This document shows positions 1,607 to 26,019 of a stretch of DNA of 32,000 bases, one piece after another. The DNA is from Candidatus Saccharimonadota bacterium (GTDB lineage Bacteria > Patescibacteriota > Microgenomatia > UBA1406 > GWC2-37-13). Location of the stretch: NCBI GenBank assembly GCA_016432445.1, contig CP066689.1, positions 1,050,001 to 1,082,000 of the forward strand, given 5' to 3'. The notes beneath the pieces are model-generated. The model searched no databases, was not told the DNA's origin, and saw only the letters and a program-made list of their open reading frames with translations. Each line of letters starts with the position of its first letter. The first letter of the stretch is position 1. The position numbers were made by a program, and so were the translations under genes.

Positions 1607-2674
1607 TTAATACCAAAGCTGTATATAGCGGTTCACTACAACCTCTCCTTTATCTGTTTTGACGGTGACTTTCCAAGGAACTAATGTCCTTATAAAAGGC
1701 AGAGGAATAAATCCAGGTTTTTTAGGCACAGAGACTTTTTTGGAAAGATCGATCGCAAAACCATCCTTATCAACTACAATATCCTCCTTAGTGATTACTT
1801 TTTTTAATTTTGACTCTTCTTTGACATAACTTTTCCACCCTCCCATTACAAAATAAATATCCAAATCACCATTAATCACTCTGTTGGAATTATCAGTTTT
1901 GACTTCTTTCCCATTTTTTTCATAGACTTTGTACTCAAATCTTGAACCATTAACTTCTTCTGAAAGCTTTTCCACTCTTATTGCCAACTTGTCATTATCA
2001 TAAATCTCAAAAAAAGACTTATCCTTCATAGGTACTGTAAAATAGAGACTTCCGGCTGCTTTTAAATGCGAGCCTGAAGCTGAGACAGTGAAATCTTTTT
2101 CGTAAATTATTTCTTTAAACTGAAAAACCCGTGCATGTGGTAATGGCCAAGGAAGTGGAAAAGAAACGCTGCTCTTCCTTACCTCAACATCCACAAAAAG
2201 ATAGCTGAAAAGAAGAATGCTTCCTAAAAATAATAAAAGCCAATACCTTAATTTCAATATTCTAAAAGGCTTTAAAAAAAACTCAAACTTCCTTTTCTCA
2301 ATAAAAGGATTAACAGATTTTGGATTTAGACGATGGCGATAATACAGATATACAAAATAGTAATTAAAAACCAGTATTAAAGAATAAATAAAATCATTGG
2401 TTAACCTCTGCCAGTTAGTCTTAAAAATAACATTTACTAGCAGATTAATACTTACAAAAAATAATAAGAATAGATAAATTTTAAGATGCACGGCTGATTT
2501 TAAAAGCCTGAAAGGAAAAATTAAAACAAAAGAGAAGATAAACAAAGGCAAATAATCCACGATATCCTTTCTTCCTAAACTGGGAAAAAAGACTATCACA
2601 ACGGGCAGTGTCAGAAGAATGAGTAAGAAACGGACAATAAAAGCGACTGTTTTTAAAGCATTGATTTTAATCAT
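1607..2674 (-). CDS. multi-pass membrane protein with C-terminal beta-rich soluble domain, function unknown
   Basis: The N-terminal ~170 aa are strongly hydrophobic (several TM helices) and the C-terminal half is hydrophilic. Its ATG overlaps the leuS TGA in an ATGA junction at 2671-2674, suggesting co-translation with leuS. Confidence 0.5.
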   Translation of the reverse strand: MIKINALKTVAFIVRFLLILLTLPVVIVFFPSLGRKDIVDYLPLFIFSFVLIFPFRLLKSAVHLKIYLFLLFFVSINLLVNVIFKTNWQRLTNDFIYSLILVFNYYFVYLYYRHRLNPKSVNPFIEKRKFEFFLKPFRILKLRYWLLLFLGSILLFSYLFVDVEVRKSSVSFPLPWPLPHARVFQFKEIIYEKDFTVSASGSHLKAAGSLYFTVPMKDKSFFEIYDNDKLAIRVEKLSEEVNGSRFEYKVYEKNGKEVKTDNSNRVINGDLDIYFVMGGWKSYVKEESKLKKVITKEDIVVDKDGFAIDLSKKVSVPKKPGFIPLPFIRTLVPWKVTVKTDKGEVVVNRYIQLWY

Positions 2675-5262
2675 GTTACTATGAAATTTAGGATTTTGCC
2701 TTTTACGTAGATTGTTTTGTAGGATTTTCCTTCCACGAATTTTTTGACTTTATTATCTTCCAAGGCTTTTTTGACTACACTTTCTTCTTGTTCTTCACGG
2801 TTTATAACCACTGTGCCTCTTACCTTGCCGTTAACCTGAACCGGTATGGTTATCTCCTCTTCCTCAACCATCTTTTCAGCTTCAGGCCAAGGAGATAAGT
2901 GAATTGAAGACTTTTCCCCAAATATATCTCTCCAAATTTCCTCTGCTGTAAAAGGTGCAAACGGAGCCAATATCTTCAAAAACTTCTTGACCTCTTCTTG
3001 AGACATTCCTTCTGACTTTTCCCAGTCATTGATAAACTCCATCATTGAGGCAATAGCTGTATTAAACTTAATATTCAAGATATCGTTTGTTACCTTATGT
3101 ACTGTTTTGTTTAATTTTTGATTTAATTGTAGGGACAGGTCGCGACCTGTCCCTACCTTAGTTTGACACAAATTCCACACGCGGTTTAAAAACCGGTATC
3201 CCCCTTGTAAAGTTGAGGTCGACCAGGAAATCTCCTGACTAAACGGAGCCATAAACATTTCATAGATTCTTAAGGTGTCAGCCCCATACTCTTTCACTAC
3301 TTCATCGGGATTTATGACATTGCCAAGAGATTTACTCATCTTACGATGATCTTCAGCTAAAACCATACCGACATTTCTTAGGCGTAAAAAAGGTTCGCTG
3401 AAATCAACTAGCTTCAGATCATAAAGAGCTTTAACCCAGAAACGGGAGTATAGAAGGTGAAGAACAGCGTGTTCTGCTCCGCCGACATACCAATCCACCG
3501 GCTGCCACTTTTTCATTGACTCCTGACTCCAGGCTTCTTTATCATTATGAGGATCAGCAAATCTCAAAAAGTACCAGCAGGAACCGGCCCAGTTGGGCAT
3601 AGTATCCGTTTCCCGTTTACCTTCACCTCCGCAGTGAGGACAAGTGGTTTTAACCCAGTCTTTGACAGCAGACAAAGGCGACTCGCCGGTTTGAGATGGC
3701 TCGTAAGACTTAAGGTAAGGTAACTCTAACGGTAAACTTTTTTCATCAATTGGGAACCATCCATAAAGCGATTCTTGAACTTCTTTGTCTAGTTTTGATA
3801 CACTATGATCCCTCATTTGACATTTGACATTTGAAATTTGAAATTCTTCTGTGTCCCACCAAGAAATCTTCTTATCAGCACATTTTTGGCAATAAACCAT
3901 AGGGATTGGTTCGCCCCAATATCTTTGTCTTGAAAAAATCCAATCTCTTAAGTGATAACTAACGGTTCGTTGCCCCCATTTTTTTTCTTCCAGATAATCC
4001 ATGATCTTCTGTTTTGCTACCTGAATGTCTAGTCCATTTAAAAACTCGGAATTAATCATTCTACCAACCTCTTCTTGTACTTGCTTGCTTTCGGTTATTG
4101 CTGAAGTATCACCGTCTTTACCAACAACAACTCTAACTATTTCTAAACCAAATTCGCGGGCAAACTCGAAATCACGCAAATCATGTCCTGGTACTCCAAC
4201 TACTGCACCCGTTCCAAAATTGGAAAGAACAAAATCAGAGACCCAAATTGGCAAAAGTTTATTATTTAAGTTGTTGACAGCATAGTAGCCTGTAAAAACT
4301 CCCGTCTTTTTCTTTCCTTCAGCTATTCTTTCCAAATCCGTCTTAGAGACTGTTCTATCAACGTATTCTTTAATCTTAGTACTATACTCACGTGGAGTAT
4401 TTTCATCCTTTAATACCTTTTTAACAAACTCATGCTCTGGAGCTAAGACAACAAAAGTTGCTCCGAAATTAGTATCAGGTCTTGTCGTAAAACAGGTAAT
4501 TTCATCAAAGATCTTAGATCTTAGATCTTGGATCTTAGATTCAGGGCAAACTACTTTGTAGGTAATATTTATACCTTCTTTGCGGCCAATCCAGTTTTTT
4601 TGCATATCCAAAATTCCTTTTGGCCAATCTAAATCATCTAATCCTTCAAGTAAACGATCGGCATAAGAGGTGATTTTAAATATCCATTGAGGCAATTCTT
4701 TTTTTGTAATTGGACAACCGCACCTTTCATGGATGCCATTGGCTAAAACTTCCTCTTCGGCCAAGCCGGTTTTACATTTTTCGCAATAATATACTTCCGT
4801 ATTTTTTTTGTAAAGCAATCCTAGCTTGTAAAATTGAATAAATAACCATTGAGTCCATTTGTAGTAAGAAGGATCAGTGGTGGAAAACTCGCGGGACCAA
4901 TCAAAGGATAATCCAAGAGCCTTCATCTGTCGCTTAAAATTGGCAATATTGTCAGGCACCATATCCATAGGGTTTTTCTTGGCTTTAATGGCCGCGTTCT
5001 CTGCCGGCAGTCCAAAAGCATCCCAACCCATAGGATGAAGAACAGAATAACCTTTCATACGGTAGTAACGGGAAAGTATATCTGTAGCAGTGTAACCTCG
5101 AGGGTGACCAACATGAAGACCTGCACCTGAAGGGTAGGGAAACATATCTAATATATATGTTTTTTGTTTATTCTTGGATGGCTCCGCGGTGGCATAAGTA
5201 TTTTCTTTATCCCATACTTCAATCAGTTTGGGTTCAAACTGAGAAGGCTGATACTTTTTCAT
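2671..5262 (-). CDS. leuS: leucyl-tRNA synthetase
   Basis: Class I motifs are present: HVGHPRGY (HIGH) and KMSKSLGN (KMSKS). It also has TTRPDT at the editing-domain entry and a Cys-rich zinc motif. The start is set at MKKYQPSQFEP (ATG 5262). The 24 extra upstream codons in the ORF track are read from a 9-nt repeat array. Confidence 0.95.
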   Translation of the reverse strand: MKKYQPSQFEPKLIEVWDKENTYATAEPSKNKQKTYILDMFPYPSGAGLHVGHPRGYTATDILSRYYRMKGYSVLHPMGWDAFGLPAENAAIKAKKNPMDMVPDNIANFKRQMKALGLSFDWSREFSTTDPSYYKWTQWLFIQFYKLGLLYKKNTEVYYCEKCKTGLAEEEVLANGIHERCGCPITKKELPQWIFKITSYADRLLEGLDDLDWPKGILDMQKNWIGRKEGINITYKVVCPESKIQDLRSKIFDEITCFTTRPDTNFGATFVVLAPEHEFVKKVLKDENTPREYSTKIKEYVDRTVSKTDLERIAEGKKKTGVFTGYYAVNNLNNKLLPIWVSDFVLSNFGTGAVVGVPGHDLRDFEFAREFGLEIVRVVVGKDGDTSAITESKQVQEEVGRMINSEFLNGLDIQVAKQKIMDYLEEKKWGQRTVSYHLRDWIFSRQRYWGEPIPMVYCQKCADKKISWWDTEEFQISNVKCQMRDHSVSKLDKEVQESLYGWFPIDEKSLPLELPYLKSYEPSQTGESPLSAVKDWVKTTCPHCGGEGKRETDTMPNWAGSCWYFLRFADPHNDKEAWSQESMKKWQPVDWYVGGAEHAVLHLLYSRFWVKALYDLKLVDFSEPFLRLRNVGMVLAEDHRKMSKSLGNVINPDEVVKEYGADTLRIYEMFMAPFSQEISWSTSTLQGGYRFLNRVWNLCQTKVGTGRDLSLQLNQKLNKTVHKVTNDILNIKFNTAIASMMEFINDWEKSEGMSQEEVKKFLKILAPFAPFTAEEIWRDIFGEKSSIHLSPWPEAEKMVEEEEITIPVQVNGKVRGTVVINREEQEESVVKKALEDNKVKKFVEGKSYKTIYVKGKILNFIVT
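3129..3156. repeat. PAL28: perfect 28-nt palindrome GTAGGGACAGGTCGCGACCTGTCCCTAC, in frame in leuS
   Basis: Identical to the copies at 10851 and 27239. It is translated as VGTGRDLSL in the anticodon-binding region of LeuRS. Confidence 0.95.
3814..3846 (-). repeat. HEP-A heptamer array (AAATGTC/AAATTTC)n, in frame in leuS
   Basis: The plus strand reads CATTTGACATTTGACATTTGAAATTTGAAATTC. The sense strand encodes FQISNVKCQM. Confidence 0.9.
4508..4542 (-). repeat. HEP-C heptamer array (AAGATCT)n, in frame in leuS
   Basis: The plus strand reads AAGATCTTAGATCTTAGATCTTGGATCTTAGATTC. The sense strand encodes SKIQDLRSKI. Confidence 0.9.
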
Positions 5263-5269
5263 ATCTGAT

Positions 5270-5275
5270 ATTATA
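5270..5275 (-). promoter_or_regulatory. -10 box TATAAT, 7 nt upstream of the leuS ATG
   Basis: The minus strand reads TATAAT-ATCAGAT-ATG. No Shine-Dalgarno sequence is present. Confidence 0.4.
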
Positions 5276-5315
5276 TAACAATTATAATAATTATAAAGAT
5301 TATAACGGTTATATA
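5270..5315. repeat. NON-E 9-nt array (TTATAANNN)n upstream of leuS
   Basis: TTATA recurs at 9-nt spacing and includes the palindrome TATAACGGTTATA (5301-5313). The first unit doubles as the leuS -10 box. Confidence 0.75.
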
Positions 5316-5596
5316 TTTTCTCTTCTGTCTTCAAAGGAATTTCTTGGTTTAGGCGGTCTGGCTTCAGAAACGACTAACTTCCGGCCTTCATATTCTTGAC
5401 CGTTAAATTTATCAATAGCCGCTTTTGCTTCCTCCTCTGATGACATTTCAACGAATCCAAAACCTTTTGATCTACCACTGTCTCTATAGCGGATAACTGA
5501 TGCAGAAACAACATTACCAACCTGAGAAAAAAGATCTTTTAACTGATCATCATTAACCTCATATAAAAGATTACCAACATAAAGCTTAGCACTCAC
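5309..5596 (-). CDS. RRM-type RNA-binding protein
   Basis: RNP2 LYVGNL and RNP1 KGFGFVEM are present. It has a GTG start preceded by GGAGGTGG with a 7-nt spacer, the clearest Shine-Dalgarno in the window. Confidence 0.85.
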   Translation of the reverse strand: MSAKLYVGNLLYEVNDDQLKDLFSQVGNVVSASVIRYRDSGRSKGFGFVEMSSEEEAKAAIDKFNGQEYEGRKLVVSEARPPKPRNSFEDRRENI

Positions 5597-5695
5597 TAAT
5601 TACCACCTCCTTCCATTTGAAAAAACGAAAATTCAACGTAAAAAACAAAAATAATTAACAATTTAATTTTACAAGTTTTTACAAGGAAAAACAAG

Positions 5696-6736
5696 TTACC
5701 GACCAAGTCCCATCAATCTTTTAATTTCTTTAATCTTTTGGCTTGATTTCTCAAGGGAAAAATCCCGTCCTTCATTTAAGACTTTATTCAAATAACCTTC
5801 ATCTTTTTTTATTACTTGATACTTTTCCTGAATTTTTTTAAGAGATCCCACCACAACTTCGGCTAAATCGGATTTAAACTGACCATAGCCTATTCCTTGG
5901 TATTGTTTCTCAATTTCTTCAACCGGTTTTCCCGACAGACGTGAATAAATCACTAAAAGGTTTGAGATGGCAGGTTTATCTTCTTTAAAAACCACCTCAG
6001 AACCTGAGTCAGTCACAGCTTTCTTAATTTTTTCTCTTATCTCATCAGGAGTATTCAAAATATTAATTGTTCCTAAAGGATCTTTATCCGACTTACTCAT
6101 TTTGCTTAAAGGATTTTGCAGACTCATAATCCGCGCCGCATCCCGATCAACTCTGGTCTCAGGAAGTACAAAGATCTCACCAAACTGCTTATTAAACTTT
6201 TCAGCAATATCCCGGGTTAACTCTACATGCTGTCTTTGATCTTCTCCTACCGGCACTACATTAGTATCATAGAGAAGAATATCAGCAGCCATAAGCGCTG
6301 GATAGTTAAAAAGGCCGACAGGCCCTTCAAACAAAGCCCGGGCTTCAGCCAATGAAGAAAGATTATCAGCCTTTATAAATTTTTGTGCTTTTTCTTTAAA
6401 CTGGGTCATCCGAAAGAGCTGTCCCATATTTAAAAAACAATCAAAAATCCAGGCCAGATACGTATGATCTGGGTTTTCAGATTGAATAAAAAGTTTTGAT
6501 TTATTAGGATCAATTCCTCCTGCCAAATATAGAGCAGACAACTCAAGATTTTTTTCTCTTAATACCTTTGGATCCTGAAAAACAGTAATGGCATGAAGAT
6601 CAACCACACAAAATATTAAATCACTAAACTCTCCGCTTTCCTGAAGATTAACAGATTGACGAATCATCCCGATATAATTACCGACGTGAAGATCACCTGA
6701 TGGCTGAATACCGGAAAATATAGTTTTTTTTACCAT
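5696..6736 (-). CDS. trpS: tryptophanyl-tRNA synthetase
   Basis: IQPSGDLHVGNYIG (HIGH-type) and KMSKSD (KMSKS) are present. The ATG at 6736 lies 5 nt after the tyrS stop. The ORF-track start at 6754 is a TTG inside tyrS. Confidence 0.9.
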   Translation of the reverse strand: MVKKTIFSGIQPSGDLHVGNYIGMIRQSVNLQESGEFSDLIFCVVDLHAITVFQDPKVLREKNLELSALYLAGGIDPNKSKLFIQSENPDHTYLAWIFDCFLNMGQLFRMTQFKEKAQKFIKADNLSSLAEARALFEGPVGLFNYPALMAADILLYDTNVVPVGEDQRQHVELTRDIAEKFNKQFGEIFVLPETRVDRDAARIMSLQNPLSKMSKSDKDPLGTINILNTPDEIREKIKKAVTDSGSEVVFKEDKPAISNLLVIYSRLSGKPVEEIEKQYQGIGYGQFKSDLAEVVVGSLKKIQEKYQVIKKDEGYLNKVLNEGRDFSLEKSSQKIKEIKRLMGLGR

Positions 6737-6740
6737 AAGT

Positions 6741-7958
6741 TTAAACAATTTCAACTATTCCATAATCTTTTTTTCCCTTACGGATTAAAAAGTATTTATT
6801 GAATAAATTATTGCTAATTACTCCTTTTTGTTCAATTAATCTTCTTGCTTCATTTTTCGATTGCACCAATCCAAGCTGAATTAAAACCTCTTCTAACACC
6901 AAATCGTTTTGGGAAGATAAGGTTGTGTAAGGCACTGATTTTTTAATAAATTTTAAGTCTTTTTCTGTCAATCCTTCTCCTTTTCTTTCAAAAAGAATAC
7001 TAGCCACAGCTTTAGACTGATCGGCTAATTCCCGTCCGTGCACCATTTCGGTTAATTCGTACGCCAGTTCTTTTTGTATCAAACGTGTTTCTTTTTGCTT
7101 CTGCCATTCACCAATCAATTCTTCTATTTCTTCTTTCGATTTAAAAGAATAGTATTTCATTAGTACTGGAGCCAGCTCATCTTCAACATTGATAAAAAAT
7201 TGATAAAAAGCAAAAGGAGGAGTTTTTTCAGGATCAAGCCAAATAGCAGCTCCTTTTTCTGTCTTACCAAATTTTTTACCTGTTTTAGGATCAACAATTA
7301 AAGGATAAGATAAAACATGAGCCTCACGGCTTATTTTTTTTCTAATAAGTTCAACCCCTTGAATCATATTTCCCCATTGATCAGACCCCCCTATCTGCAC
7401 CTCACATTGATGATCCTCATAAAAACGTAAAAAATCATATGCTTGTAAAAGCTGATAAGAAAACTCTGCATATGATATTCCTTCCTGACGGGAAAGTCTT
7501 GTCTTTACAGATTCCATATCCATCATTGAGTTAGCTGAGATGTATTTACCGGTATCACGTAAAAAATCAATAAGAGATAATTTCTCCAGCCACTCGGCAT
7601 TATCTATTGTTTTAACTCTTTTACCGTCTATCTTAAAAAAATTTTCCACTTGCTTTGACAATTTTTCTTTATTGGCTGCCAATATGTCTTTGGAAACGAT
7701 TGGACGTTCGGCGTCTTTTCCTGACGGATCACCAATAGCGGCTGTACCCGTGGCCATAAGAACAATAATATTATGACCTGCTTCGTAAGCTCTTTTTAAA
7801 ACCAAATAACCTAAAAGATGTCCGAAATGAAGACTGTCGGCAGTAGCATCAACACCATAATAAATAGTTGCTCCTTTATTAAAAACATTTTCAATTCCAG
7901 GAGTTTTCTGGTAAATGAGTCCTCTCCATTCAAGATCGTTTAAAAAATTAATTTCCAT
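6741..7958 (-). CDS. tyrS: tyrosyl-tRNA synthetase
   Basis: YYGVDATADSLHFGHL (HIGH), KFGKT (KMSKS equivalent), and a C-terminal S4-like RNA-binding tail. TATAAT lies 8 nt upstream of the ATG. Confidence 0.9.
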   Translation of the reverse strand: MEINFLNDLEWRGLIYQKTPGIENVFNKGATIYYGVDATADSLHFGHLLGYLVLKRAYEAGHNIIVLMATGTAAIGDPSGKDAERPIVSKDILAANKEKLSKQVENFFKIDGKRVKTIDNAEWLEKLSLIDFLRDTGKYISANSMMDMESVKTRLSRQEGISYAEFSYQLLQAYDFLRFYEDHQCEVQIGGSDQWGNMIQGVELIRKKISREAHVLSYPLIVDPKTGKKFGKTEKGAAIWLDPEKTPPFAFYQFFINVEDELAPVLMKYYSFKSKEEIEELIGEWQKQKETRLIQKELAYELTEMVHGRELADQSKAVASILFERKGEGLTEKDLKFIKKSVPYTTLSSQNDLVLEEVLIQLGLVQSKNEARRLIEQKGVISNNLFNKYFLIRKGKKDYGIVEIV

Positions 7959-7966
7959 AGTTCTCT

Positions 7967-7972
7967 ATTATA
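7967..7972 (-). promoter_or_regulatory. -10 box TATAAT, 8 nt upstream of the tyrS ATG
   Basis: The minus strand reads TGTATAAT-AGAGAACT-ATG. Confidence 0.4.
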
Positions 7973-7983
7973 CATAAAGTTTT

Positions 7984-9048
7984 TTACGCTATCATTTCAT
8001 CAGGAAGAGGCGTATATGTCGCTTTATCTACGCTTTCCTTACTTGGAAACCTCCTCTTAAAGATTTCTGTGATATTTTCGTGAGGCTCAAGTTCTTGCCT
8101 TTCTTCATAAAACCCATGTTTTATTAACAAATCACCTTGTCCTTCTCCAGCTAAAACTTCTTGAATACGCTTAACTTGCTCTTCAGCCGCCATCACCGAT
8201 ATAAACATTGAGTACTCTTTTAAAGCTGCCTCACTAATTCTTCTATTCCCAAGAGCTAAAGTTAAGCTATCAATCATCATTTTAAAATCGATTCCTTCTG
8301 CTTTTCCTGATCTAATTACCTCTCTTAACCGTTTCATTTCTTTATTAATTTTAATTTTTACAATTCTTTTATCAGTTAAATTAATTAACCCTTTAAAAAA
8401 GGCATAAGTATGACGAACTTCTCCATTTAGTAATGCCCTTTTATTTACTTCTATAGCTCTTTGAAGGTCAACGTCCTCTGACGTTAGTAAACATGAAGAC
8501 ACAGTTGATGTAAACTTGTTTTGTTCGTCTCCTTTTTTATCTTCCTTTAAATCAATCTTCATCTGAACTATCTCCCGTTGACGGTTTCTAATCATTTCAA
8601 AATCATTTTGATTTAAACCTGCTCCAAAAATTATCACCTCATCAGCCGCATGAGTCGGCCTTACCGCATAAATTTTTGCTGTAGGCGACAATAAGGCTGG
8701 ATCAAAAGCTTGAGTAATATCATTTGTTCCCGCAACAATTAAATCGTCACCAAGAGATCTGCTTATCAAATTGGCACGTTTAAGATCGTCAAGATCTGCA
8801 GAAAAAATCGCCCAACCCTCACCTTTTTTAATAGCGTCGGAAAACTCTCCAATAATATGGTATCTAACTGAACCGTCAAAAATAGGAAGTCCTGTAAGTC
8901 TATCCGCTTTTTTTTCGTGATCTCCCGTGTAACGAGTTAAATCCTTAAACTTTGCTGGCACGTTGGACAAAATATTTTGGGAAACTGGTTTTTGCTCCCT
9001 CATCTTTTCTTCAATCGCTATTATTTGAGCTTCAGTACGTGGATCCAT
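7984..9048 (-). CDS. hypothetical protein with degenerate GGDEF-like (nucleotide cyclase palm) signature
   Basis: FSADLDDLKRANLISRSLGDDLI resembles the D-x-D-FK-x-ND...GD-x-x-L entry of GGDEF domains. AVRPTHAADEVIIFG occupies the R-x-GGDEF position but reads AADEV. This comes from motif reading only. Confidence 0.45.
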   Translation of the reverse strand: MDPRTEAQIIAIEEKMREQKPVSQNILSNVPAKFKDLTRYTGDHEKKADRLTGLPIFDGSVRYHIIGEFSDAIKKGEGWAIFSADLDDLKRANLISRSLGDDLIVAGTNDITQAFDPALLSPTAKIYAVRPTHAADEVIIFGAGLNQNDFEMIRNRQREIVQMKIDLKEDKKGDEQNKFTSTVSSCLLTSEDVDLQRAIEVNKRALLNGEVRHTYAFFKGLINLTDKRIVKIKINKEMKRLREVIRSGKAEGIDFKMMIDSLTLALGNRRISEAALKEYSMFISVMAAEEQVKRIQEVLAGEGQGDLLIKHGFYEERQELEPHENITEIFKRRFPSKESVDKATYTPLPDEMIA

Positions 9049-9053
9049 AAAAT

Positions 9054-9068
9054 GGATTTTGGATTTTT
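9054..9068. repeat. HEP-A-type mini array GGATTTTGGATTTTT
   Basis: Two units lie directly upstream of the ATG of ORF 7984-9048 on the minus strand. Confidence 0.5.
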
Positions 9069-9144
9069 ATTGATATAACTATAACAAAATTTATAAGATA
9101 ACAACAGTAAATATTAAAAAAATCTCCTACTAAATTAATTGCAA

Positions 9145-9173
9145 TTGACTTTATTAAAAATAATGTATACTAA
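9145..9173 (+). promoter_or_regulatory. candidate tkt promoter TTGACT-17-TACTAA
   Basis: Consensus-like -35 at 9145-9150 and an AT-rich -10 region. The ATG at 9186 would leave a leader of only a few nt. Confidence 0.35.
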
Positions 9174-9185
9174 ATATCTAAATAT

Positions 9186-11150
9186 ATGAACTCGAAGATT
9201 AAAGACCTCTGCAAACTGCTTCGATATGATGTTATAACCTCAACCACTGCCGCCGGTTCTGGACACCCTACAACCTGTCTTTCCGCTATAGAACTCATGG
9301 GAACATTATTTTTTAAAGGCTTTTTCCATTTTGATCCTGACCATCATGAAAGTATTCTTAACGACCGTATTATTTTTTCTAAAGGCCATGCTGCTCCCCT
9401 ACTTTATGCGTTATACCATGCAGCTGGATTAATAAGCCAAGATGATATTTTAAGTTTGCGTAAATTTGACTCTGTTTTTGAAGGACATCCTACTCCGAGA
9501 TTTAAGTACGTTGATGTTTCCACTGGTTCTCTAGGTCAAGGATTGTCAATAGGCGTGGGAATGGCATTAGGAATAAAAACCAAAATCCAAATGTCAAATG
9601 TCAAAATTAAAAGAGAACCTAAGGTATGGGTATTGATAGGAGACTCAGAAATAGCTGAAGGACAGGTTTGGGAAGCTATGGAAATAGCCTCACATTACAA
9701 ACTTAACAATCTGGTTGCCATACTTGATGTTAACCGTTTAGGTCAAAGAGGAGAAACAATGCTTGGATGGGATCTTAAAACTTATGAAAAACGAGCTCAA
9801 GCTTTTGGCTGGGAAACAATTGTTATCAAAGACGGCCATGATATTGAGGAAATAAAAAACGCATATCATCATGTCGACGAACGCCCAACGACGAACGCAA
9901 AACCCACAATGATCATCGCAAAAACCATAAAAGGCAAAGGCGTTTCCTTTCTTGAAAACAAAGATAACTGGCACGGTAAACCAGTACCTAAGGATAGATT
10001 AGAGGAAGCTTTAAAAGAATTGAGTAAAGTTAACCTTAAGGTAAGAGGAACAGTAACCAAACCAAAATTAGTTAAGGGTTTAGAGTTAAGGGTTTTGGGT
10101 AAAACTCAAAACTCTCAACCCTCAACCATAAACTATAAACCTGGAGCAATGGTTGCCACCCGTGAAGCTTATGGCGATGCTCTTGTTACATTAGGAGAAA
10201 AAAATCCCAACTTAGTAGTACTTGACGCTGAAACCTCAAACTCAACCTACGCTGATAAATTTAAAAATAATTTTCCTGAAAGATACTTTGAGATGTATAT
10301 TGCCGAACAAAATATGATCTCAGTCGCTTTAGGATTTTCTAAATTAGGATTTATTCCTTTTATCTCCAGTTTTGCCGCTTTTTTAACCCGATCTTTTGAT
10401 CAAATACGTATGGCTCAATACTCAAACGGCAATGTAAAAATATGCGGATCACATGCTGGGGTATCAATTGGCTCAGATGGTCCTTCGCAAATGGCATTGG
10501 AAGATATATCAATGATGAGAAGCATACTAGAAAGCACTGTTTTTTACCCATCAGATGCTGTTTCCGCTTATAATCTGGTTTATCAAAGTATGAGTACATC
10601 TTCTCTTACTTACATCCGCACCACTCGGGAAAAAACGCCCATTTTATATAGCTCTCAAGAAAAGTTTACTGTTGGTGGATCAAAAATTTTAAAACAAAGC
10701 AAAAATGATGATGCGGTTATTTTTACTGCCGGAATCACAGTCCATGAATCTCTTAAAGCTTACGAGGAACTAAAAAAAGAAGGAATTAATGTTTGCGTTG
10801 TTGATCTTTACTCCATCAAACCAATTGATTCGTTAACCATCCACAATCTAGTAGGGACAGGTCGCGACCTGTCCCTACCTAAAATCAATAACGTCATTGT
10901 TGTTGAGGATCATTACCCATATGGTGGCCTCGGCGAAGCCGTAATGTCGCAGATCAAAGATCTAACATCGAAGATCTCCTTCACTCACCTGGCTGTCAAT
11001 AAAATCCCCCGTTCAGGCACACCCGAAGAACTTTTAGCCTACGAAAAAATTAATGCCGCTGCTATCGTTAAAATATGTAAGGGCGTATTGCAATACGCCC
11101 CTACCTCACTCAAAAAAACCGTAACGGCAAAGGAACAACTTACCGCTTAA
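9186..11150 (+). CDS. tkt: transketolase, N- and C-terminal halves fused
   Basis: The N half has GSGHPTTCLS, GDSEIAEGQVWEA and WHGKP. The C half has ATREAYGDAL, EQNMISVA and HAGVSIGSDGPSQ. It contains six repeat-derived in-frame segments (see repeats). Its 3' end overlaps the convergent ATPase by 11 nt. Confidence 0.9.
   Translation: MNSKIKDLCKLLRYDVITSTTAAGSGHPTTCLSAIELMGTLFFKGFFHFDPDHHESILNDRIIFSKGHAAPLLYALYHAAGLISQDDILSLRKFDSVFEGHPTPRFKYVDVSTGSLGQGLSIGVGMALGIKTKIQMSNVKIKREPKVWVLIGDSEIAEGQVWEAMEIASHYKLNNLVAILDVNRLGQRGETMLGWDLKTYEKRAQAFGWETIVIKDGHDIEEIKNAYHHVDERPTTNAKPTMIIAKTIKGKGVSFLENKDNWHGKPVPKDRLEEALKELSKVNLKVRGTVTKPKLVKGLELRVLGKTQNSQPSTINYKPGAMVATREAYGDALVTLGEKNPNLVVLDAETSNSTYADKFKNNFPERYFEMYIAEQNMISVALGFSKLGFIPFISSFAAFLTRSFDQIRMAQYSNGNVKICGSHAGVSIGSDGPSQMALEDISMMRSILESTVFYPSDAVSAYNLVYQSMSTSSLTYIRTTREKTPILYSSQEKFTVGGSKILKQSKNDDAVIFTAGITVHESLKAYEELKKEGINVCVVDLYSIKPIDSLTIHNLVGTGRDLSLPKINNVIVVEDHYPYGGLGEAVMSQIKDLTSKISFTHLAVNKIPRSGTPEELLAYEKINAAAIVKICKGVLQYAPTSLKKTVTAKEQLTA
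9581..9608 (+). repeat. HEP-A heptamer array, in frame in tkt
   Basis: CAAAATCCAAATGTCAAATGTCAAAATT encodes KIQMSNVKI. Confidence 0.9.
9875..9903 (+). repeat. HEP-F heptamer array (CGACGAA/CGCNNAA)n, in frame in tkt
   Basis: The units CGACGAA CGCCCAA CGACGAA CGCAAAA encode DERPTTNAK. Confidence 0.8.
10071..10140 (+). repeat. HEP-H inverted heptamer arrays (GTTNNGG)x4 / (NNNNAAC)x6, encoding the linker between the transketolase halves
   Basis: The units are GTTAAGG GTTTAGA GTTAAGG GTTTTGG GTAAAAC TCAAAAC TCTCAAC CCTCAAC CATAAAC TATAAAC. They are translated as VKGLELRVLGKTQNSQPSTINY. Confidence 0.8.
10851..10878. repeat. PAL28 perfect copy, in frame in tkt
   Basis: The same 28-mer, translated as VGTGRDLSL. 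Confidence 0.95.
10950..10978 (+). repeat. HEP-C degenerate array, in frame in tkt
   Basis: CAGATCAAAGATCTAACATCGAAGATCTC encodes QIKDLTSKI, to be compared with KIQDLRSKI in LeuRS. Confidence 0.7.
11077..11104. repeat. PAL28 variant GTAAGGGCGTATTGCAATACGCCCCTAC at the 3' end of tkt
   Basis: Same length and same GTA.GG/CC.TAC ends as the perfect copies. The core differs but is perfectly self-complementary (GGGCGTATTG/CAATACGCCC). Translated as KGVLQYAP. Confidence 0.8.
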
Positions 11151-13650
11151 TGATCTTTTTTATCAAACCTATTCCGGGTAGAACTAACATTGTCACTATA
11201 AGGAGTTCTAAAAATAATGGTGTAGTTATCATCTCAACTTTAAAAAGTTTAGATAAACTTGGTATATTCACAATCATAAACTGATTAACAATAGGAATTG
11301 CAAATGCTATCAAAAATGCTTTTGAAAGAAAGCTTTTAACATGTTTATTAATAGAACGGTGAGATAACCAAAGATCAACAAAAACAAAAGACTGAATCAT
11401 GGCCAGCACTGAAAAAGCAGCAGTTTTACCAACGTCTTCTCCGTTTGATTTAAATAAAAAATAAGAGACCATCACCAAAGATGTTGCTAAAAAAGCAACT
11501 AGAATAATATATCGTTTATCAAAATTATTAAAAAGACTCAATTTTTTTTCCGGAGGTTTATTCATTAAATGATCTTCACGGGGTGAAAATGCCAAAGCTA
11601 AAGCAGGGATTCCATCACTGATGAAATTTATATAAAGTATTTGGACAGCGCTAAAGAAAGCAGGCACACCCAAGATAAGTCCAGTCATAAGCGCTAAGGC
11701 TTCTGTAGCATTGGTTGATAATAAATATTTAATAGAGTTTTTAAGATTCTTTACAATATTCCTGCCTTCCTCAACCGCACTAATAATGGTTGCAAAATTA
11801 TCATCCATAATCACAATATCAGAAGTCTCACGAGCTACATCAGTACCTACCTTCCCCATAGATATTCCAACATCCGCCTGCTTTAATGCAATCGCATCAT
11901 TAACACCGTCTCCTGTTACAGCCACTATCTCTCCTAATTTTTGATACAAAGATACAATTCGGCTTTTATGAAGAGGTGTTGTGCGGGCAAATATTTTTAC
12001 TTTAGGCAGTTTTTCTAATAATTCCTCGTCCGTATAACTCTCTATTTGCTTTCCTGTTAAAATCAGATCGCCTTCTTTAATAATGTTCACGGCTACTCCA
12101 ACTGCCTCAGCTGTTTTTTCATTATCGCCGGTTATAATCACAACTTTAATACCGGCGCGATAGGCTTTTTCCACTGCTCCTTTTACCTCAGGTCTTGGAG
12201 GATCGTGGATGGCGACCATACCGATGAATATTTGATCTTCGATCTTAGATCTTAGATCTTGGTATGAAAACGCGATAACCCTGTAGCCTTTTTTCGTCCA
12301 ATGATCCAGTGTTTTCTCGACTTCATGTCTTCTTTCTTGGGTAAACTCCACCTCTTTTCCCGCGATCAAAATTTTTCCGCATTTCTCCAAAATAGCCTCC
12401 GGAGCTCCTTTAATAAACATTATTTCTTTATTATCTTTTTTTACCACCACACTCATTGTCTTGGTTAAAATATCAAATGAACCTTCTTTTATAAACTGCC
12501 ATTCTGTTCTTAATTCTTCAGGATCTATACCAAAATGCTCTCTGGCAAAAAGCAGTAAAGAACCTTCTGTTGGATCACCCAAAACTTCCCAGGAATTATG
12601 ATCATGAACATAAACTAAAGAAGCCGTGGAACATAAAATTCCATTAGTGATTAATTTTTTAAGCGAAGGATTATCATGCGGAATTGACTGATGATCTTCA
12701 AATATCTTTCCGTCGGTTAAAATTTCCTTTATTCTCATATCGTTACTAGTTAAGGTACCGGTTTTATCTGTCGCAATAAGAGTTATATTGCCTATAGCTT
12801 CAATTGCCTCAAGTCTTCTCACGACTGCCTTTTTCTTGGCCATCTCTTTTACTCCTAAAGCTAAAGTAATTGTCGTTACTGCCGGCAACCCTTCAGGTAC
12901 AATAGCTACTGCTAAAGATATCGCCAGTAAAAATGCAGGAAAGTAACCGGAGCCGTTAATAAACGATAATCCTAGAACTGCTATAGAAAAAATAATGCCG
13001 ACAACTCCGATTATTTTAAGCAAACTATTGAGCTTGCGCTGAAGAGGAGTAGAAGTTTTTTCAATTTTGGAAAGACTGTTGGCTATTTGTCCAAATCTGG
13101 TTTTCATTCCAGTTTGAGTTATCTGCGCTTGCGCCCGGCCTTTAAATATAACTGTCCCCATAAATATCTCATCACCTGCATATTTATATACAGGTATAGA
13201 CTCACCGGTTAAAGAAGCTTCATTAACCTCAAGATTAACTGCCTTAAAAACTTTAGCATCAGCCGGAATCTTCATACCTTCCTCAATGAGAATGATGTCT
13301 TTAGGCACTAAAAAACTGCTGTCAATCTCCATTTCTTTCCCATCTCTAATTACTCTTGATACTGTAACTGCCAATTTCTTTAAGGCACTTATTGCTTCCT
13401 CTGCTTTTCTTTCTTGATAAATCTTAAAGACAGCATTTAAAAAAATAATAGCTAAGATAAGTGAACCGTCAATGATTTCACTAATGAAAAATGATATGCC
13501 GGCTGCTCCAAGTAAAAGAAGAGTCAAAACATCCTTAAACTGTCTTAAAAAAATTAAGATCAGACTGTCTTTACGCGTCTCTTCAATAACATTAAGCCCA
13601 TGCGTCCTTAAAAGACGCTCCACTTCTGGTGATGAAAGACCCTTTAACAT
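11140..13650 (-). CDS. cation-transporting P-type ATPase (P2-type, Ca2+/Mg2+-like)
   Basis: Motifs present: DKTGTLT phosphorylation site, PEGLPA in TM4, TGDN, GDGVNDAIALK, and TGES in the actuator domain. I prefer the ATG at 13650 (MLKGLSSPE). The ORF-track start at 13659 is a TTG inside a repeat. Confidence 0.9.
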   Translation of the reverse strand: MLKGLSSPEVERLLRTHGLNVIEETRKDSLILIFLRQFKDVLTLLLLGAAGISFFISEIIDGSLILAIIFLNAVFKIYQERKAEEAISALKKLAVTVSRVIRDGKEMEIDSSFLVPKDIILIEEGMKIPADAKVFKAVNLEVNEASLTGESIPVYKYAGDEIFMGTVIFKGRAQAQITQTGMKTRFGQIANSLSKIEKTSTPLQRKLNSLLKIIGVVGIIFSIAVLGLSFINGSGYFPAFLLAISLAVAIVPEGLPAVTTITLALGVKEMAKKKAVVRRLEAIEAIGNITLIATDKTGTLTSNDMRIKEILTDGKIFEDHQSIPHDNPSLKKLITNGILCSTASLVYVHDHNSWEVLGDPTEGSLLLFAREHFGIDPEELRTEWQFIKEGSFDILTKTMSVVVKKDNKEIMFIKGAPEAILEKCGKILIAGKEVEFTQERRHEVEKTLDHWTKKGYRVIAFSYQDLRSKIEDQIFIGMVAIHDPPRPEVKGAVEKAYRAGIKVVIITGDNEKTAEAVGVAVNIIKEGDLILTGKQIESYTDEELLEKLPKVKIFARTTPLHKSRIVSLYQKLGEIVAVTGDGVNDAIALKQADVGISMGKVGTDVARETSDIVIMDDNFATIISAVEEGRNIVKNLKNSIKYLLSTNATEALALMTGLILGVPAFFSAVQILYINFISDGIPALALAFSPREDHLMNKPPEKKLSLFNNFDKRYIILVAFLATSLVMVSYFLFKSNGEDVGKTAAFSVLAMIQSFVFVDLWLSHRSINKHVKSFLSKAFLIAFAIPIVNQFMIVNIPSLSKLFKVEMITTPLFLELLIVTMLVLPGIGLIKKIIKR
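12233..12262 (-). repeat. HEP-C heptamer array, in frame in the P-type ATPase
   Basis: The plus strand reads TGATCTTCGATCTTAGATCTTAGATCTTGG. The sense strand encodes QDLRSKIEDQ. Confidence 0.9.
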
Positions 13651-13750
13651 AAAATTCAAATATCAAATGTCAAAAAAATAATATTCGTCATTTGATATTT
13701 GGAATTTGGATTTGATTTGACATTTGAAATTTGGATTTTGGATTTAATTG
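13651..13750. repeat. HEP-A inverted heptamer arrays between the ATPase start and the HEPN-like ORF end; contains a 50-nt unit at 13664-13713
   Basis: CAAATGTCAAAAAAATAATATTCGTCATTTGATATTTGGAATTTGGATTT matches 14272-14321 at 48/50 positions. Further ATTTGNN units follow. Confidence 0.9.
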
Positions 13751-14230
13751 AATCAGTGATTGGTGTGTCTTTTCCATTGTCTGTGTAATCTGGGTGATGA
13801 TTTTTTGTGATTCTTCAAAGCTAATGCTCTTAAGATTATGAGGAAAATAATGAAAAATTTGATTACGCCCGCCTTTCCAAGTCATCCAAATCTCCTCAGC
13901 CAATTCTTTTCCTGCATTATTGATTATTTTTTTATACAGTGATTTTTCTCCTAAACGTACCATCAAAAATGGCGAGAGCAGTTTACCTAAACGTAAGTGA
14001 TCGGAGATATAATCAAGATGAGAAATAAAACCAATATCTTTAAACAATGTTTTTAAGTAACCCTCATAAGCTTTTGCGTAAGGAAAAACTAAAAAAGAAT
14101 AATCTTTAAATTTATAAGGACAGCTGGAGATAACATTGTTGATGAGATAATCGCCTTCAAGAAGAAGATCTTTTTGATTTTGAGAAAGATAATCCCAAAA
14201 CTCATTCCTTACACTATTTTTCGTATCCAT
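13688..14230 (-). CDS. HEPN-like protein (RN-x3-H motif), no partner gene
   Basis: GGRNQIFHYF has the spacing of the DUF86/HepT-type RNxxxH catalytic motif, in a predicted all-helical ~180-aa protein. It has its own TTGACA-17-TATATA promoter. The last ~20 codons are read from heptamer repeats. The family call is tentative. Confidence 0.45.
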   Translation of the reverse strand: MDTKNSVRNEFWDYLSQNQKDLLLEGDYLINNVISSCPYKFKDYSFLVFPYAKAYEGYLKTLFKDIGFISHLDYISDHLRLGKLLSPFLMVRLGEKSLYKKIINNAGKELAEEIWMTWKGGRNQIFHYFPHNLKSISFEESQKIITQITQTMEKTHQSLIQLNPKSKFQMSNQIQIPNIK

Positions 14231-14236: not shown

Positions 14237-14265
14237 ATTATATACGAAAATTAAATCCAAATGTC
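14237..14265 (-). promoter_or_regulatory. promoter TTGACA-17-TATATAAT for the HEPN-like ORF, with the -35 supplied by a HEP-A heptamer
   Basis: The minus strand reads TTGACA-TTTGGATTTAATTTTCG-TATATAAT-GTTTCA-ATG. Confidence 0.5.
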
Positions 14266-14328
14266 AAAATCCAAATGTCAAAAAAATAATATTTGTCATT
14301 TGATATTTGAAATTTGGATTTTGGATTT
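14253..14328. repeat. HEP-A inverted heptamer arrays between the HEPN-like ORF start and the rplA stop; contains a 50-nt unit at 14272-14321
   Basis: This is a direct repeat of 13664-13713 with 2 mismatches. Its minus strand supplies the TTGACA of the HEPN-like promoter. Confidence 0.9.
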
Positions 14329-14332
14329 TACT

Positions 14333-15118
14333 TTATATTTGTTCAATATTTAACCTTAGAGAGGGGCTCATGGTTGTTTTGACGAAAGCTCCAAGAATAT
14401 GATTTCTGCCTACTGACTTTAAGAAAGCGCTAATATTTTTATCTAGCTCTTTTTCCTCAGATGATATCTTACCTATCATCTGGTGAATTAAAGGAAATTT
14501 AGGTTCTGTTTTCCAACGGGTTACACCTTTGGAAAATTTTTTCACCAATTCTTCAGGATTAGGTGAGATTGTGCCGGCTTTAGGATTGGGCATTAAGCCT
14601 TTCGGACCTAATACTTTAGCAAATTTGGCGAGCTTTGGCATGAAAGATGGATGGGTCACTAAAACATCAAAATTCATATTTCCTTTTTCCAGTTCTGACA
14701 AAAGATCATCGCTTACAACAGCTACTCTAACGCTTTTTCCGATTGAAAAAGGAAGCTCTGCCTCACCTCTTAAACCGGTTTTATCAACGTTTAAATGTAC
14801 CTCAACGGATTCATCAAACTTTGCATATTTGATTTTCTTCAGATTAGATATCGCTTCAGGAATAGAATATGTTTTTTTTGTATCAATGGCTTTTTTGGCC
14901 GTTGAGTATTTCTTTCCCCGCTGACGGACTTGAGTTTTAGCTTGCCTTTTTCCCGTTTTTTTTACTTTAACCTCGGTAGGTTTTGTCTCTTCCTTCTCTT
15001 GGCTAACTACAACTTTAGTGGAAGTAGCTTTTTTTTGTACAGATTTTTCTTTCTGTTCTTTTTTTTGTTTTTTTTCTTCTTCTTCTAAACCTAAAGTTCT
15101 AGTTCTGATTTTTCCCAT
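14333..15118 (-). CDS. rplA: 50S ribosomal protein L1 with ~60-aa Lys/Glu-rich N-terminal extension
   Basis: The L1 core is recognisable: KKYSTAKKAID...YSIPEAI, GKSVRVAVV, NFDVLVTHP, LGPKGLMPNPKAGT. I chose the ATG at 15118 because the sequence upstream of it is the same 69-nt block that precedes the rplK ATG. Confidence 0.9.
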   Translation of the reverse strand: MGKIRTRTLGLEEEEKKQKKEQKEKSVQKKATSTKVVVSQEKEETKPTEVKVKKTGKRQAKTQVRQRGKKYSTAKKAIDTKKTYSIPEAISNLKKIKYAKFDESVEVHLNVDKTGLRGEAELPFSIGKSVRVAVVSDDLLSELEKGNMNFDVLVTHPSFMPKLAKFAKVLGPKGLMPNPKAGTISPNPEELVKKFSKGVTRWKTEPKFPLIHQMIGKISSEEKELDKNISAFLKSVGRNHILGAFVKTTMSPSLRLNIEQI

Positions 15119-15119
15119 A

Positions 15120-15188
15120 TTTTTATTGAGATTCAAGATTCAGGATTCAAGAATTTATTCGTAAATCGTGAATCGTAAATCATGAATC
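15120..15188. repeat. HEP-D 69-nt block (GATTCAR)x3, spacer, (NTRAATC)x4, abutting the rplA start
   Basis: 68/69 identical to 15628-15696. It ends 1-2 nt from the rplA ATG (15118). Confidence 0.95.
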
Positions 15189-15198
15189 GTAACTTATA

Positions 15199-15624: not shown

Positions 15625-15627
15625 ATA

Positions 15628-15696
15628 TTTTTATTGAGATTCAAGATTCAGGATTCAAGAATTTATTCGTAAATCGTGAATCATAAATCATGAATC
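15628..15696. repeat. HEP-D 69-nt block abutting the rplK start
   Basis: 68/69 identical to 15120-15188. It ends 3 nt from the rplK ATG (15624). Confidence 0.95.
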
Positions 15697-15701
15697 AAGA
15701 T

Positions 15702-16550: not shown

Positions 16551-16615
16551 ATTGATTCACGATTTATGATTAATGATTCATGAATCGTGAATCTTGAATC
16601 ATTAATCAATGATCA
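16551..16615. repeat. HEP-D related array (ATGATTC/GTGAATC/TTGAATC units) in the secE / 16635 divergent spacer
   Basis: ATTGATTCACGATTTATGATTAATGATTCATGAATCGTGAATCTTGAATCATTAATCAATGATC is built from the same unit vocabulary as HEP-D. Confidence 0.75.
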
Positions 16616-16621
16616 ATAATA

Positions 16622-17258: not shown

Positions 17259-17266
17259 ATATAAAC

Positions 17267-18033: not shown

Positions 18034-18035
18034 TA

Positions 18036-25973: not shown

Positions 25974-26019
25974 TTAATATTGAGGCTTAACAGAGCCTTA
26001 AAGATTGAATTAACGTTCG

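Follow-up and report, generated by a model that had tools for sequence, protein, structure and literature searches.

Housekeeping genes of a small-genome, groundwater-type bacterium of Candidatus Roizmanbacteria (candidate phyla radiation (CPR), Microgenomates) contain short repeats translated in frame, among them the genes for leucyl-tRNA synthetase (LeuRS), transketolase and a P-type ATPase. This metagenome-assembled genome (MAG) measures ~1.10 Mb, and the window studied here is the whole stretch of 32 kb (32,000 nucleotides of contig CP066689.1) with a GC content of ~36%, of which 91.6% is coding and 8.4% non-coding. We consider it likely that two independent nucleotide-level repeat classes, 28-nt palindromes and arrays of tandem heptamers, fill the sequence-tolerant parts of this compact genome, i.e. 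surface loops, linkers, termini and short spacers. These two unrelated classes had been mixed under one interpretation in the original prediction, which took the Rickettsia palindromic elements (RPEs) as precedent. That precedent is a fair analogy for the palindrome PAL28, but is only partly right as one mechanism for all segments. The description given in the original prediction holds for the most part.

LeuRS is encoded by open reading frame (ORF) 2671–5262 (minus strand), has all expected Pfam domains and matches T. thermophilus LeuRS over its whole length (695 bits). The fused transketolase (ORF 9186–11150, plus strand) aligns with human TKT over residues 5–637 (572 bits), and the P-type ATPase (ORF 11140–13659, minus strand) has the complete set of five Pfam domains. 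All ten coordinates and peptides claimed for the repeat segments proved exact. In transketolase the peptides are IQMSNVKI (9585–9608), DERPTTNA (9876–9899), VGTGRDLSL (10851–10877), QIKDLTSKI (10950–10976) and KGVLQYAP (11079–11102); in LeuRS VGTGRDLSL (3130–3156), QISNVKCQM (3814–3840) and SKIQDLRSKI (4510–4539); and in the ATPase QDLRSKIEDQ (12232–12261). As had been proposed, the segments are nucleotide-level features and not conserved protein motifs, with a period of 7 nt and not 3, and with units that also form non-coding hairpins; the same repeat units are indeed also found between genes. The heptamer tracts are nucleotide-level in origin. A Rfam scan (at the gathering threshold) and a tRNA scan of the window gave no matches, so the repeats are not known RNA genes.

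The proposed location of the segments in loops agrees with AlphaFold models of transketolase and LeuRS, in which they fall in coil or low-confidence parts. Each of the six transketolase segments is predicted to occupy coil, the end of a helix or the C-terminus, and confidence drops locally there in a model of otherwise high scores (mean predicted local distance difference test (pLDDT) 85.6, predicted template modelling score (pTM) 0.88; pLDDT <50 at linker residues 302–311 and tail residues 639–654). In the LeuRS model (mean pLDDT 72) the three segments coincide with stretches <50. Low confidence at the LeuRS inserts is weaker evidence than that from transketolase, because the LeuRS model is only moderate.

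PAL28 and a second palindrome family

PAL28 (GTAGGGACAGGTCGCGACCTGTCCCTAC) is present in the window as three exact copies with unrelated flanks, compared to 0.00 expected. It carries the feet 5′ GTAG and 3′ CTAC, and folds into a 12-bp stem with a 4-nt loop (−21.1 kcal/mol, z-score −6.2), in which GGG at positions 4–6 pairs with CCC at 23–25. One copy, an exact match, is located in the length-variable linker before the LeuRS anticodon-binding domain (3129–3156, minus strand; pLDDT <50 at residues 706–709), another exact match in the 557–568 coil of transketolase (10851–10878, plus strand) and the third in an ORF with an integrase N-domain (27239–27266, plus strand). All three share the VGTGRDLSL reading frame; because one of the three frames has a TAG, this agreement alone is not significant.

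The palindrome at the transketolase C-terminus (11077–11104, plus strand; GTAAGGGCGTATTGCAATACGCCCCTAC) encodes KGVLQYAP at the start of a 20-aa C-terminal extension. It had been taken for a PAL28 variant, but constitutes a separate palindrome family with only the GTAGGG/CCCTAC ends in common with PAL28; it runs GTAA...CTAC and is one mismatch from the perfect form GTAGGGGCGTATTGCAATACGCCCCTAC. The transketolase and ATPase genes are convergent with an 11-nt overlap (11140–11150), and the extension around the palindrome overruns the 3′ end of the ATPase gene. On the minus strand, a simple terminator scan reports the palindrome as a terminator-like hairpin 36 nt past the ATPase stop codon.

Using one genome per species, the exact PAL28 28-mer was found in at least 120 loci elsewhere, again with unrelated flanks. 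Among the matches listed are Patescibacteria, Bacteroidota (including the cultured Segetibacter, Pontibacter and Xanthomarina), Nitrospinota, Gammaproteobacteria, Fibrobacter, Spirochaetia, Calditrichia, Ignavibacteria, Aminicenantes, Zixibacteria, Planctomycetales and Bacillota. In at least 15 loci, 3 of them from Patescibacteria, PAL28 lies inside or beside an ORF of ~170–200 aa (within it in 13) that resembles a REP-associated tyrosine transposase (RAYT; REP, repetitive extragenic palindrome). This ORF reads ...VVMPNHIHGIIEIN..VGTGRDLSLQ..IKSLSE.MGAYKTT.SK...WQRSFHDHIIR...YI..NP, and has NHIHGIIEIN ahead of VGTGRDLSL. A PAL28-carrying ORF matches NCBIfam NF047646 (REP-associated tyrosine transposase) with an E-value of 2e-17 and 63 bits, below the 80-bit equivalog cut-off, and within these genes PAL28 is in frame between the HuH and Tyr motifs. 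The perfect form of the second palindrome occurs on at least 120 metagenome contigs, and within RAYT-like ORFs at at least nine places, where it reads RGVLQYAPT or, in another frame, VGAYCNTPL.

TnpA_REP subclass 2.4 is defined by the motifs NH[IFV]H, WQ and YIxNNP, and its double-foot REPs, with 5′ GT[AG]G and 3′ C[TC]AC, stand in frame within tnpA_REP genes between HuH and Y (Quentin et al. 2018, PMC6006769). Judged from sequence, the 28-nt palindromes are two separate families of double-foot GTAG REPs of this TnpA_REP/RAYT subclass 2.4 type. Intragenic GTAG REPs in unrelated genes were catalogued earlier (Di Nocera et al. 2013, PMC3733652). A full-text search of the literature found no paper containing the two palindrome cores or their peptides.

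The eight PAL28 residues of transketolase are missing in 24 of 24 aligned relatives, and codon alignment with the genes of loci L121 (Gottesmanbacteria), L122 (another Roizmanbacteria locus) and L124 puts the net gain at exactly 24 nt (8 aa). In transketolase PAL28 is thus a clean lineage-specific insertion. IS200/IS605-type enzymes insert beside a target tetranucleotide. A 28-nt element that adds 24 nt would fit insertion beside a pre-existing foot tetranucleotide, in this single case, and insertion of PAL28 in this manner would keep the reading frame. A RAYT-type transposase acting in trans on single-stranded DNA may have placed both palindromes here. The Y1 transposase of the relative L131 proved to be an ordinary IS200-type gene with no internal palindrome. 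Just four PAL28 matches were found in viral contigs, so phage carriage is not obviously the vector of PAL28.

PAL28 also occurs at one position of a Ser/Thr protein kinase in both a Patescibacteria MAG (L005 1856; TLKETIS-VGTGRDLSL-PLN) and an Aminicenantes MAG (L069 5785; TLKDIVS-VGTGRDLSL-PLN), which could reflect target preference or gene transfer. In other phyla the flanks often prolong the palindrome with locus-specific bases, and half-copies (GTAGGGACAGGTCGCGAC) stand in tandem beside full copies (loci for these flank extensions and half-copies: L010, L034, L076, L088, L093, L104, L111, L117; L031, L059, L075, L098, L109). In the window, the integrase ORF (27092–28083 region) has an N-terminal SAM-like domain alone and holds both PAL28 and a HEP-A array; the ORF next to it has no Pfam match. 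This truncated ORF may be a decayed integrase.

Heptamer arrays in genes and across Microgenomates

Nine exact period-7 runs were found in the window compared to 0.1 in shuffles, together with eight at period 14; other periods gave practically no such runs, with no excess at 4, 5, 8 or 10. A tolerant detector reported 20 lag-7 arrays (596 nt), and 0–1 at lags 4, 5, 6, 8 and 10. This corresponds to an array density of 0.625/kb; five related Microgenomates loci have 0.33/kb, and 847 kb of DNA of other phyla 0.045/kb. The density had been called exceptional, which holds in relation to the control DNA of other phyla (~14x), but it is not unique, as 10 arrays occur within 13.5 kb of a related Roizmanbacteria locus; heptamer arrays are present in all six related Microgenomates loci examined. 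Of the 20 arrays in the window, ten lie entirely inside ORFs, two cross a gene end and eight are intergenic. Arrays are therefore enriched in non-coding DNA, which makes up 8.4% of the sequence and holds 8/20 of them (P = 1e-4 for ≤12/20 arrays touching ORFs).

The window units are CAAATGT, AGATCTN, ACGAACG and GATTCAR. The HEP-A units CAAATGT, CAAATTT and CAAATAT are stop-free solely in the CAAAT orientation, and all genic HEP-A copies have this orientation with the exception of one ATTTGGA-variant array, which is open both ways. Pure AGATCTT/AGATCTA units have a stop in both orientations, the coding register giving a TAA every 21 nt. The genic HEP-C copies have sense codons at both TAA positions (CAA, GAA or AAA via a single first-base change, TTT or TCC at the array end), and in LeuRS, the ATPase and transketolase they share the register K-I-x-D-L-R-S. 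Both the sense-orientation bias and the stop-removing substitutions would be expected because selection acts as a filter, so that inside genes only frame-keeping, stop-free versions survive. Identical peptides had been reported from unrelated proteins on both strands; this is true but a trivial consequence of sequence, because PAL28 is a perfect palindrome and a heptamer array gives one cyclic heptapeptide in all three frames.

The HEP-A-type array in a transketolase loop (9575–9616, plus strand) consists of AAANNCA units with 2.6 core copies of CAAATGT, and encodes TKIQMSNVKIK. Most of the 24 aligned relatives, and all five genes compared as DNA, have a loop of equal length. Across the five it aligns codon by codon, with 13/36 positions differing from L123, and its residues are partly shared with some relatives (NVKIKREPKV and NLKIKREPKI). 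Residues shared with orthologues had been named beforehand as refuting evidence, and for the heptamers they tell in part against the original prediction. The 24-mer at 9582–9605 is identical at 23/24 positions to 25890–25913 of an intergenic array, and ~25 other sites match at ≥20/24. The diverged HEP-C array of the same gene (10950–10977, plus strand; QIKDLTSKI) matches the pure array at 24/30 positions; its site has the same length in the closest relative and holds arrays of other units in 7/8 relatives. A tract resembling HEP-F (CGACGAA; 9875–9899, plus strand; DERPTTNA; 75% matches) adds 2–3 aa in a variable loop, and its assignment to HEP-F is weak. The interdomain linker contains a heptamer-armed hairpin, HEP-H (10069–10126, plus strand; VKGLELRVLGKTQNSQPST; −23 kcal/mol, z −4.3). 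No second copy of HEP-H was found in the window at ≤3 mismatches outside the transketolase linker.

In LeuRS, the HEP-A array (3812–3846, minus strand; FQISNVKCQM; pLDDT <50 at residues 479–489) sits in a ~40-aa insert common to most Microgenomates relatives and adds 5 aa net. The HEP-C (AGATCTN) array at the start of the editing domain (4504–4540, minus strand; SKIQDLRSKIF; pLDDT <50 at residues 242–249) makes the 4510 tract ~13 aa longer than in the nearest, 70–71% identical relatives, where the tract is absent. L131 LeuRS has an AGATCT-type array at the same site in another register (ILDFRSQ), and the 4510 site is a hot spot in other relatives. A HEP-C array in a hypervariable loop of the ATPase (12231–12263, minus strand; QDLRSKIEDQ) is contained in the 12233 tract, 8 aa longer than in the nearest, 68% identical relative, which lacks the tract. 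Among the heptamer tracts, only LeuRS 4510 and ATPase 12233 appear to behave as lineage-specific additions. The expectation that each segment is a lineage-specific indel therefore holds for PAL28 in transketolase and for these two tracts, but not for the HEP-A loop and the HEP-C site of transketolase.

Further arrays are translated in other ORFs. These comprise a HEP-F array (ACGAACG x4; 21063–21093, plus strand; ATNDERRTQND) in the ComEC metallo-beta-lactamase (MBL) ORF, a HEP-A array (17060–17101, plus strand; KNQISNVKLQN) in membrane ORF 16635–17258, whose positional counterpart in L121 is a (GAAAAGT)n array, and a HEP-A array in the integrase N-domain ORF (27444–27476, plus strand; KISNVKFQMS). 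A perfect (TCAAATG)x4.7 array followed by an inverted (ATTTGGA) array (17263–17357, plus strand) covers the N-terminal region and hydrophobic core of ORF 17239–18033. The perfect part, at 17267–17299, forms codons 10–20 of this secreted-looking protein and resembles a slippage-controlled contingency locus. The PaaX-like gene, thought to carry a copy, has none inside, a hairpin merely abutting its stop codon; and where at least eight families had been proposed, six or seven sequence types are counted inside ORFs.

Comparison of eight Microgenomates transketolase genes revealed that period-7 or period-8 arrays recur at three alignment-column sites with different units: columns ~138–168 in 7/8 genes, ~320–360 (the interdomain linker) in 5/8 and ~634–655 in 7/8. 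The units vary by genome and include AGATCNA, CATCCAR, TTCAAAY, AAATTGA and the octamer CAATGAAA. Period-8 arrays (CAATGAAA, ATCGATTA) are seen in the L121 and L123 genes at columns ~596–612 and ~637–655. Because period-8 arrays occupy sites that elsewhere hold heptamer arrays or PAL28, the phenomenon is not strictly limited to 7-nt units. These alignments suggest that the transketolase sites are old array sites evolving in place, with the unit turning over across genera. The heptamer tracts are heptanucleotide simple-sequence arrays, mostly not recent insertions.

Hairpin cassettes between genes

Inverted arrays form hairpins of −19 to −30 kcal/mol with z of −4 to −6, except for −2.3 for the 13645–13760 cassette; in the clearest, six pairs and one mismatch alternate regularly per unit. 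The hairpins sit directly after stop codons, and several ORFs enter the open-orientation arm and end either in the loop or within the arm that bears TGA, leading to repeat-encoded tails on the RnlA-like protein, ComEC-MBL and the product of ORF 24994–25923. The cassettes have inverted arms and occur in two copies each. One 82-nt cassette extends from the L11 stop to the L1 start codon (15117–15198, minus strand; GATTCAR/GAATCRT arms; z −5.7) and a second from the NusG stop to the L11 start codon (15625–15706, minus strand; z −5.45); the two (D11) share 94% identity. The corresponding spacers are 1 nt (NusG-L11) and 8 nt (L11-L1) in L122, and at most ~50 nt in L121.

A heptamer hairpin cassette at the end of the RnlA/HEPN-like gene (13651–13755, minus strand) encodes the C-terminal tail KFQMSNQIQIPNIK up to the stop codon, and includes a 63-nt copy. 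Another is located right after the L1 stop codon (14248–14329, minus strand; −22.1 kcal/mol, z −4.1). The 63-nt cassettes at 13651–13713 and 14259–14321 are 89% alike, share the loop and bracket the RnlA/HEPN-like gene. This gene was considered as a mobile unit, which was rejected as it is syntenic in L121 and L122; the gene order Tkt-ATPase-RnlA-like-L1-L11-NusG...ComEA-ComEC-MBL-PaaX is common to both loci.

The other hairpins are given without strand. A palindromic heptamer array of GAATCAT type (16551–16617; z −5.4) is intergenic and upstream of the membrane ORF. Between the convergent ComEC-MBL and PaaX genes, a heptamer hairpin (21463–21545; z −4.4) has a left arm coding for the ComEC tail and a right arm that gives the TGA stop. 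The hairpin at the 3′ end of ORF 24994–25923 (25869–25976; z −4.4) encodes the tail SKCQMTNIK before the stop. An intergenic hairpin (26684–26800; z −6.0) contains 49 nt, in a segment from 26692 (I3), that are 90% complementary to 21491–21539. Because such long matches between loci (49–82 nt) keep the order of variant units, slippage alone is insufficient to explain them, and sequence has therefore been copied between array loci.

By analogy with REPs in other bacteria, the hairpins most likely act as terminators or mRNA stabilisers. Promoter-like matches (10–11/12) inside cassettes are found at 13673–13646 (minus strand), at the ATPase start, and at 26706–26679 (minus strand); they fall there because the HEP-A unit, read as its reverse complement, includes TTGACA.

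Arrays with a 9-nt period (unit TATAAC(N)GT) are located at gene starts or ends (5266–5322, 18027–18083, 19764–19802 and 23994–24050). Two of these encode hydrophobic, signal-peptide-like N-termini of ORFs 18036–19028 and 23994–25001, with 66 nt shared at 83%. At 28722–32000, an open frame of >1,090 codons runs past the window end with a GC content of 0.42–0.47, compared to ~0.36 elsewhere.

Origin of the repeats and relation to known systems

The explanation we favour combines several processes. Slippage would give rise to heptamer arrays and alter their length in situ, and the dominant units of the genome may spread from array to array by ectopic gene conversion or copying. With selection as the filter described above, the translated copies are probably neutral passengers.

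Several observations sit uneasily with parts of this account. All three PAL28 copies in the window are within ORFs compared to at most 34% elsewhere, so that here the element is not predominantly extragenic; among the matches listed, 34% of the copies elsewhere are spanned by an open frame of ≥200 aa, compared to 79% of random sites. A hidden Markov model (HMM) built from five PAL28-carrying ORFs detects no RAYT-like gene within the 32-kb window, which leaves trans-mobilisation a hypothesis here. The LeuRS PAL28 region is equal in length to that of P0122, so this copy is not a clean indel, and the +24-nt rule is drawn from one empty-site comparison. At one and the same LeuRS site, both the window and L131 have AGATCT arrays that closer relatives lack, which could reflect repeated insertion or loss. 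Copying between loci may proceed by ectopic conversion or by some form of transposition; no target-site duplications were seen at the two 82-nt cassette junctions examined. Finally, the simple terminator scan flags the 11077–11104 palindrome and no heptamer hairpin, the latter being missed because they are AT-rich and without G+C-rich stems.

As in the original prediction, every segment, heptamers included, could instead be a recent in-frame insertion of a small mobile element, similar to RPEs or miniature inverted-repeat transposable elements (MITEs), into a repeat-free gene. Such a scheme readily accommodates the clean PAL28 insertion in transketolase, the LeuRS 4510 and ATPase 12233 tracts missing in the nearest relatives, the near-identical cassettes of 63 and 82 nt, whose spacers have almost no sequence in relatives, and the 23/24 identity of the transketolase loop 24-mer to an intergenic array. 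We nevertheless regard it as unlikely, given that most aligned relatives have a HEP-A loop of equal length, which can be aligned codon by codon in the five genes compared as DNA, that the transketolase HEP-C site is equally long in the closest relative and that arrays of other units stand at the same three sites in up to 7/8 genes. Furthermore, the net length differences (15, 24 and 39 nt) are not element-sized, and neither terminal repeats nor target duplications were seen at the two cassette junctions examined. Misassembly is a natural concern with a MAG, since repeats are a classic source of it, and the integrase ORF is truncated; that the segments are assembly chimeras or parts of decaying pseudogenes is, however, scarcely credible. 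Logan assemblies from separate sequencing runs (SRR12113430 and SRR12113426) match the transketolase locus with 0 mismatches over 3.5–4.0 kb, the SRR12113430 contig being shared by 9 samples, and 5 contigs carry the ATPase protein. Host ORFs are full length, with LeuRS and transketolase aligned end to end to solved structures without frameshifts, and related genomes of other studies show the same phenomenon. For transketolase this explanation is already refuted.

Selection on the segments as protein, i.e. as conserved peptide motifs or low-complexity linkers with DNA similarity secondary, might account for the similar length and composition (K/I/L/N-rich) of HEP-A loops in relatives. However, a 7-nt periodicity is needless for any peptide repeat, the same DNA is present in non-coding hairpins, the AGATCT unit reads KIQDLRS here and ILDFRSQ in L131, the peptide at the same site is different in every genome and the segments are of low model confidence; the proposal is exceedingly improbable and already largely refuted. 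Alternatively, the arrays could be functional nucleic-acid modules (protein-binding heptamers or terminator-plus-promoter cassettes) kept by a genome-wide dedicated process, with translation a by-product. This is very unlikely in our view: while the units are genome-wide within a genome and different between genomes, the cassettes of the nusG-rplK-rplA operon stand exactly between one stop codon and the start codon that follows, the hairpins far exceed shuffled sequence in stability, and the reverse HEP-A unit contains TTGACA with promoter-like matches in the cassettes at 13673–13646 and 26706–26679, no candidate protein or template was found, the promoter-like excess is weak (77 sites vs 57.6 ± 8.2), related genomes have 1–42-nt spacers at the same junctions and mutation-driven heptamer excess is known elsewhere (PMC4692102). 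There is a slim chance that a class-wide Microgenomates system keeps arrays at fixed genic and intergenic positions, with units homogenised per genome by a dedicated process, making the arrays functional modules and not slippage debris. Templated copying, or a heptamer-specific recombination or repair activity, may be candidates for such a process, and a portable hairpin terminator also carrying a TTGACA promoter box would be an example of a module.

Both repeat kinds are already known, and on the account of two independent classes the palindromes are a known phenomenon in a new host. They resemble the double-foot GTAG REPs of subclass 2.4 (RAYT group 4) in their feet, long perfect stem, dispersed identical copies, in-frame copies within the transposase gene and scattered distribution over phyla (PMC6006769). 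They differ in that no cognate transposase is present within 32 kb and all three copies are in ORFs, including LeuRS and transketolase; no report was found in the literature searched of double-foot GTAG REPs in a CPR host. Intragenic GTAG/CGTC REPs are likewise palindromic elements translated in frame in unrelated functional genes (PMC3733652). They and RPEs, like the elements here, are presumed neutral and land in loops or linkers. RPEs, of which Ogata and colleagues reportedly wrote in 2000, are said to occur in Rickettsia only, with RPE-1 measuring 100–150 bp. Similar to the present case, RPEs are inserted in frame in functional ORFs at tolerated sites. In contrast, the palindromes here are of 28 nt and GTAG type, the arrays measure 21–57 nt, the host is a Roizmanbacteria member and heptamer arrays are not palindromic elements.

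Among small dispersed repeats, the miniature inverted-repeat elements of Nostoc are said by Elhai and colleagues (2008) to be hairpin cassettes copied intergenically and occasionally into genes. The cassettes here differ in having arms of tandem heptamers, with no target-site duplications or defined termini seen at the two junctions examined. Cyanobacterial short tandemly repeated repetitive (STRR) units include CCCCAGT, TTGGTCA and CAACAGT, sequences that are not matched by the window units. The Xanthomonas GGGAATC and Nostoc GGGGA(C/T)T heptamers are intergenic and often inverted, with a polymerase-slippage hypothesis cited (Rehm et al. 2015, PMC4692102). As far as that paper relays a 2007 survey, the cyanobacterial, Nostoc and Xanthomonas heptamers are like the present arrays in having 2–7 units, period 7 and variant units per array (PMC4692102). 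Intergenic enrichment near stops, frequent inverted stem-loop pairs and extensive turnover between relatives are also shared (PMC4692102). The arrays here differ in that their units are AT-rich, unrelated and not G-quadruplex formers, that half of them are translated, including in essential enzymes, and that sites are conserved across genera with changing units, a pattern not described in PMC4692102. No report was found in the literature searched of heptamer arrays in CPR bacteria, of half such arrays being translated, LeuRS and transketolase included, or of array sites kept across genera with unit turnover. Hence, 7-base repeats at fixed loop positions across a bacterial class seem unreported so far.

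Repeat units within ORFs of Borgs are reportedly multiples of three. The unit here is 7 nt and samples every frame, such that frame preservation needs selection on total length. Borg tandem repeats are described as creating intrinsically disordered protein regions, and are comparable to the arrays here as nucleotide-level tandem repeats in ORFs that add low-complexity or disordered segments (PMC9879509).

These observations show how a ~1-Mb, 92%-coding genome accommodates selfish or mutation-driven repeats: because there is almost no intergenic space, repeats are translated in loops of LeuRS, transketolase and the P-type ATPase. Peptides such as VGTGRDLSL, RGVLQYAPT and QMSNVKC in metagenomic proteins are repeat-derived, and in CPR proteins they should be taken neither for motifs nor for signals of homology. 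As the 28-nt REPs are identical across phyla, they provide a tracer of the horizontal spread of subclass-2.4 RAYTs, CPR included. Fixed sites with changing units furthermore constitute a natural experiment on repeat origin, homogenisation and disordered protein segments in bacteria.

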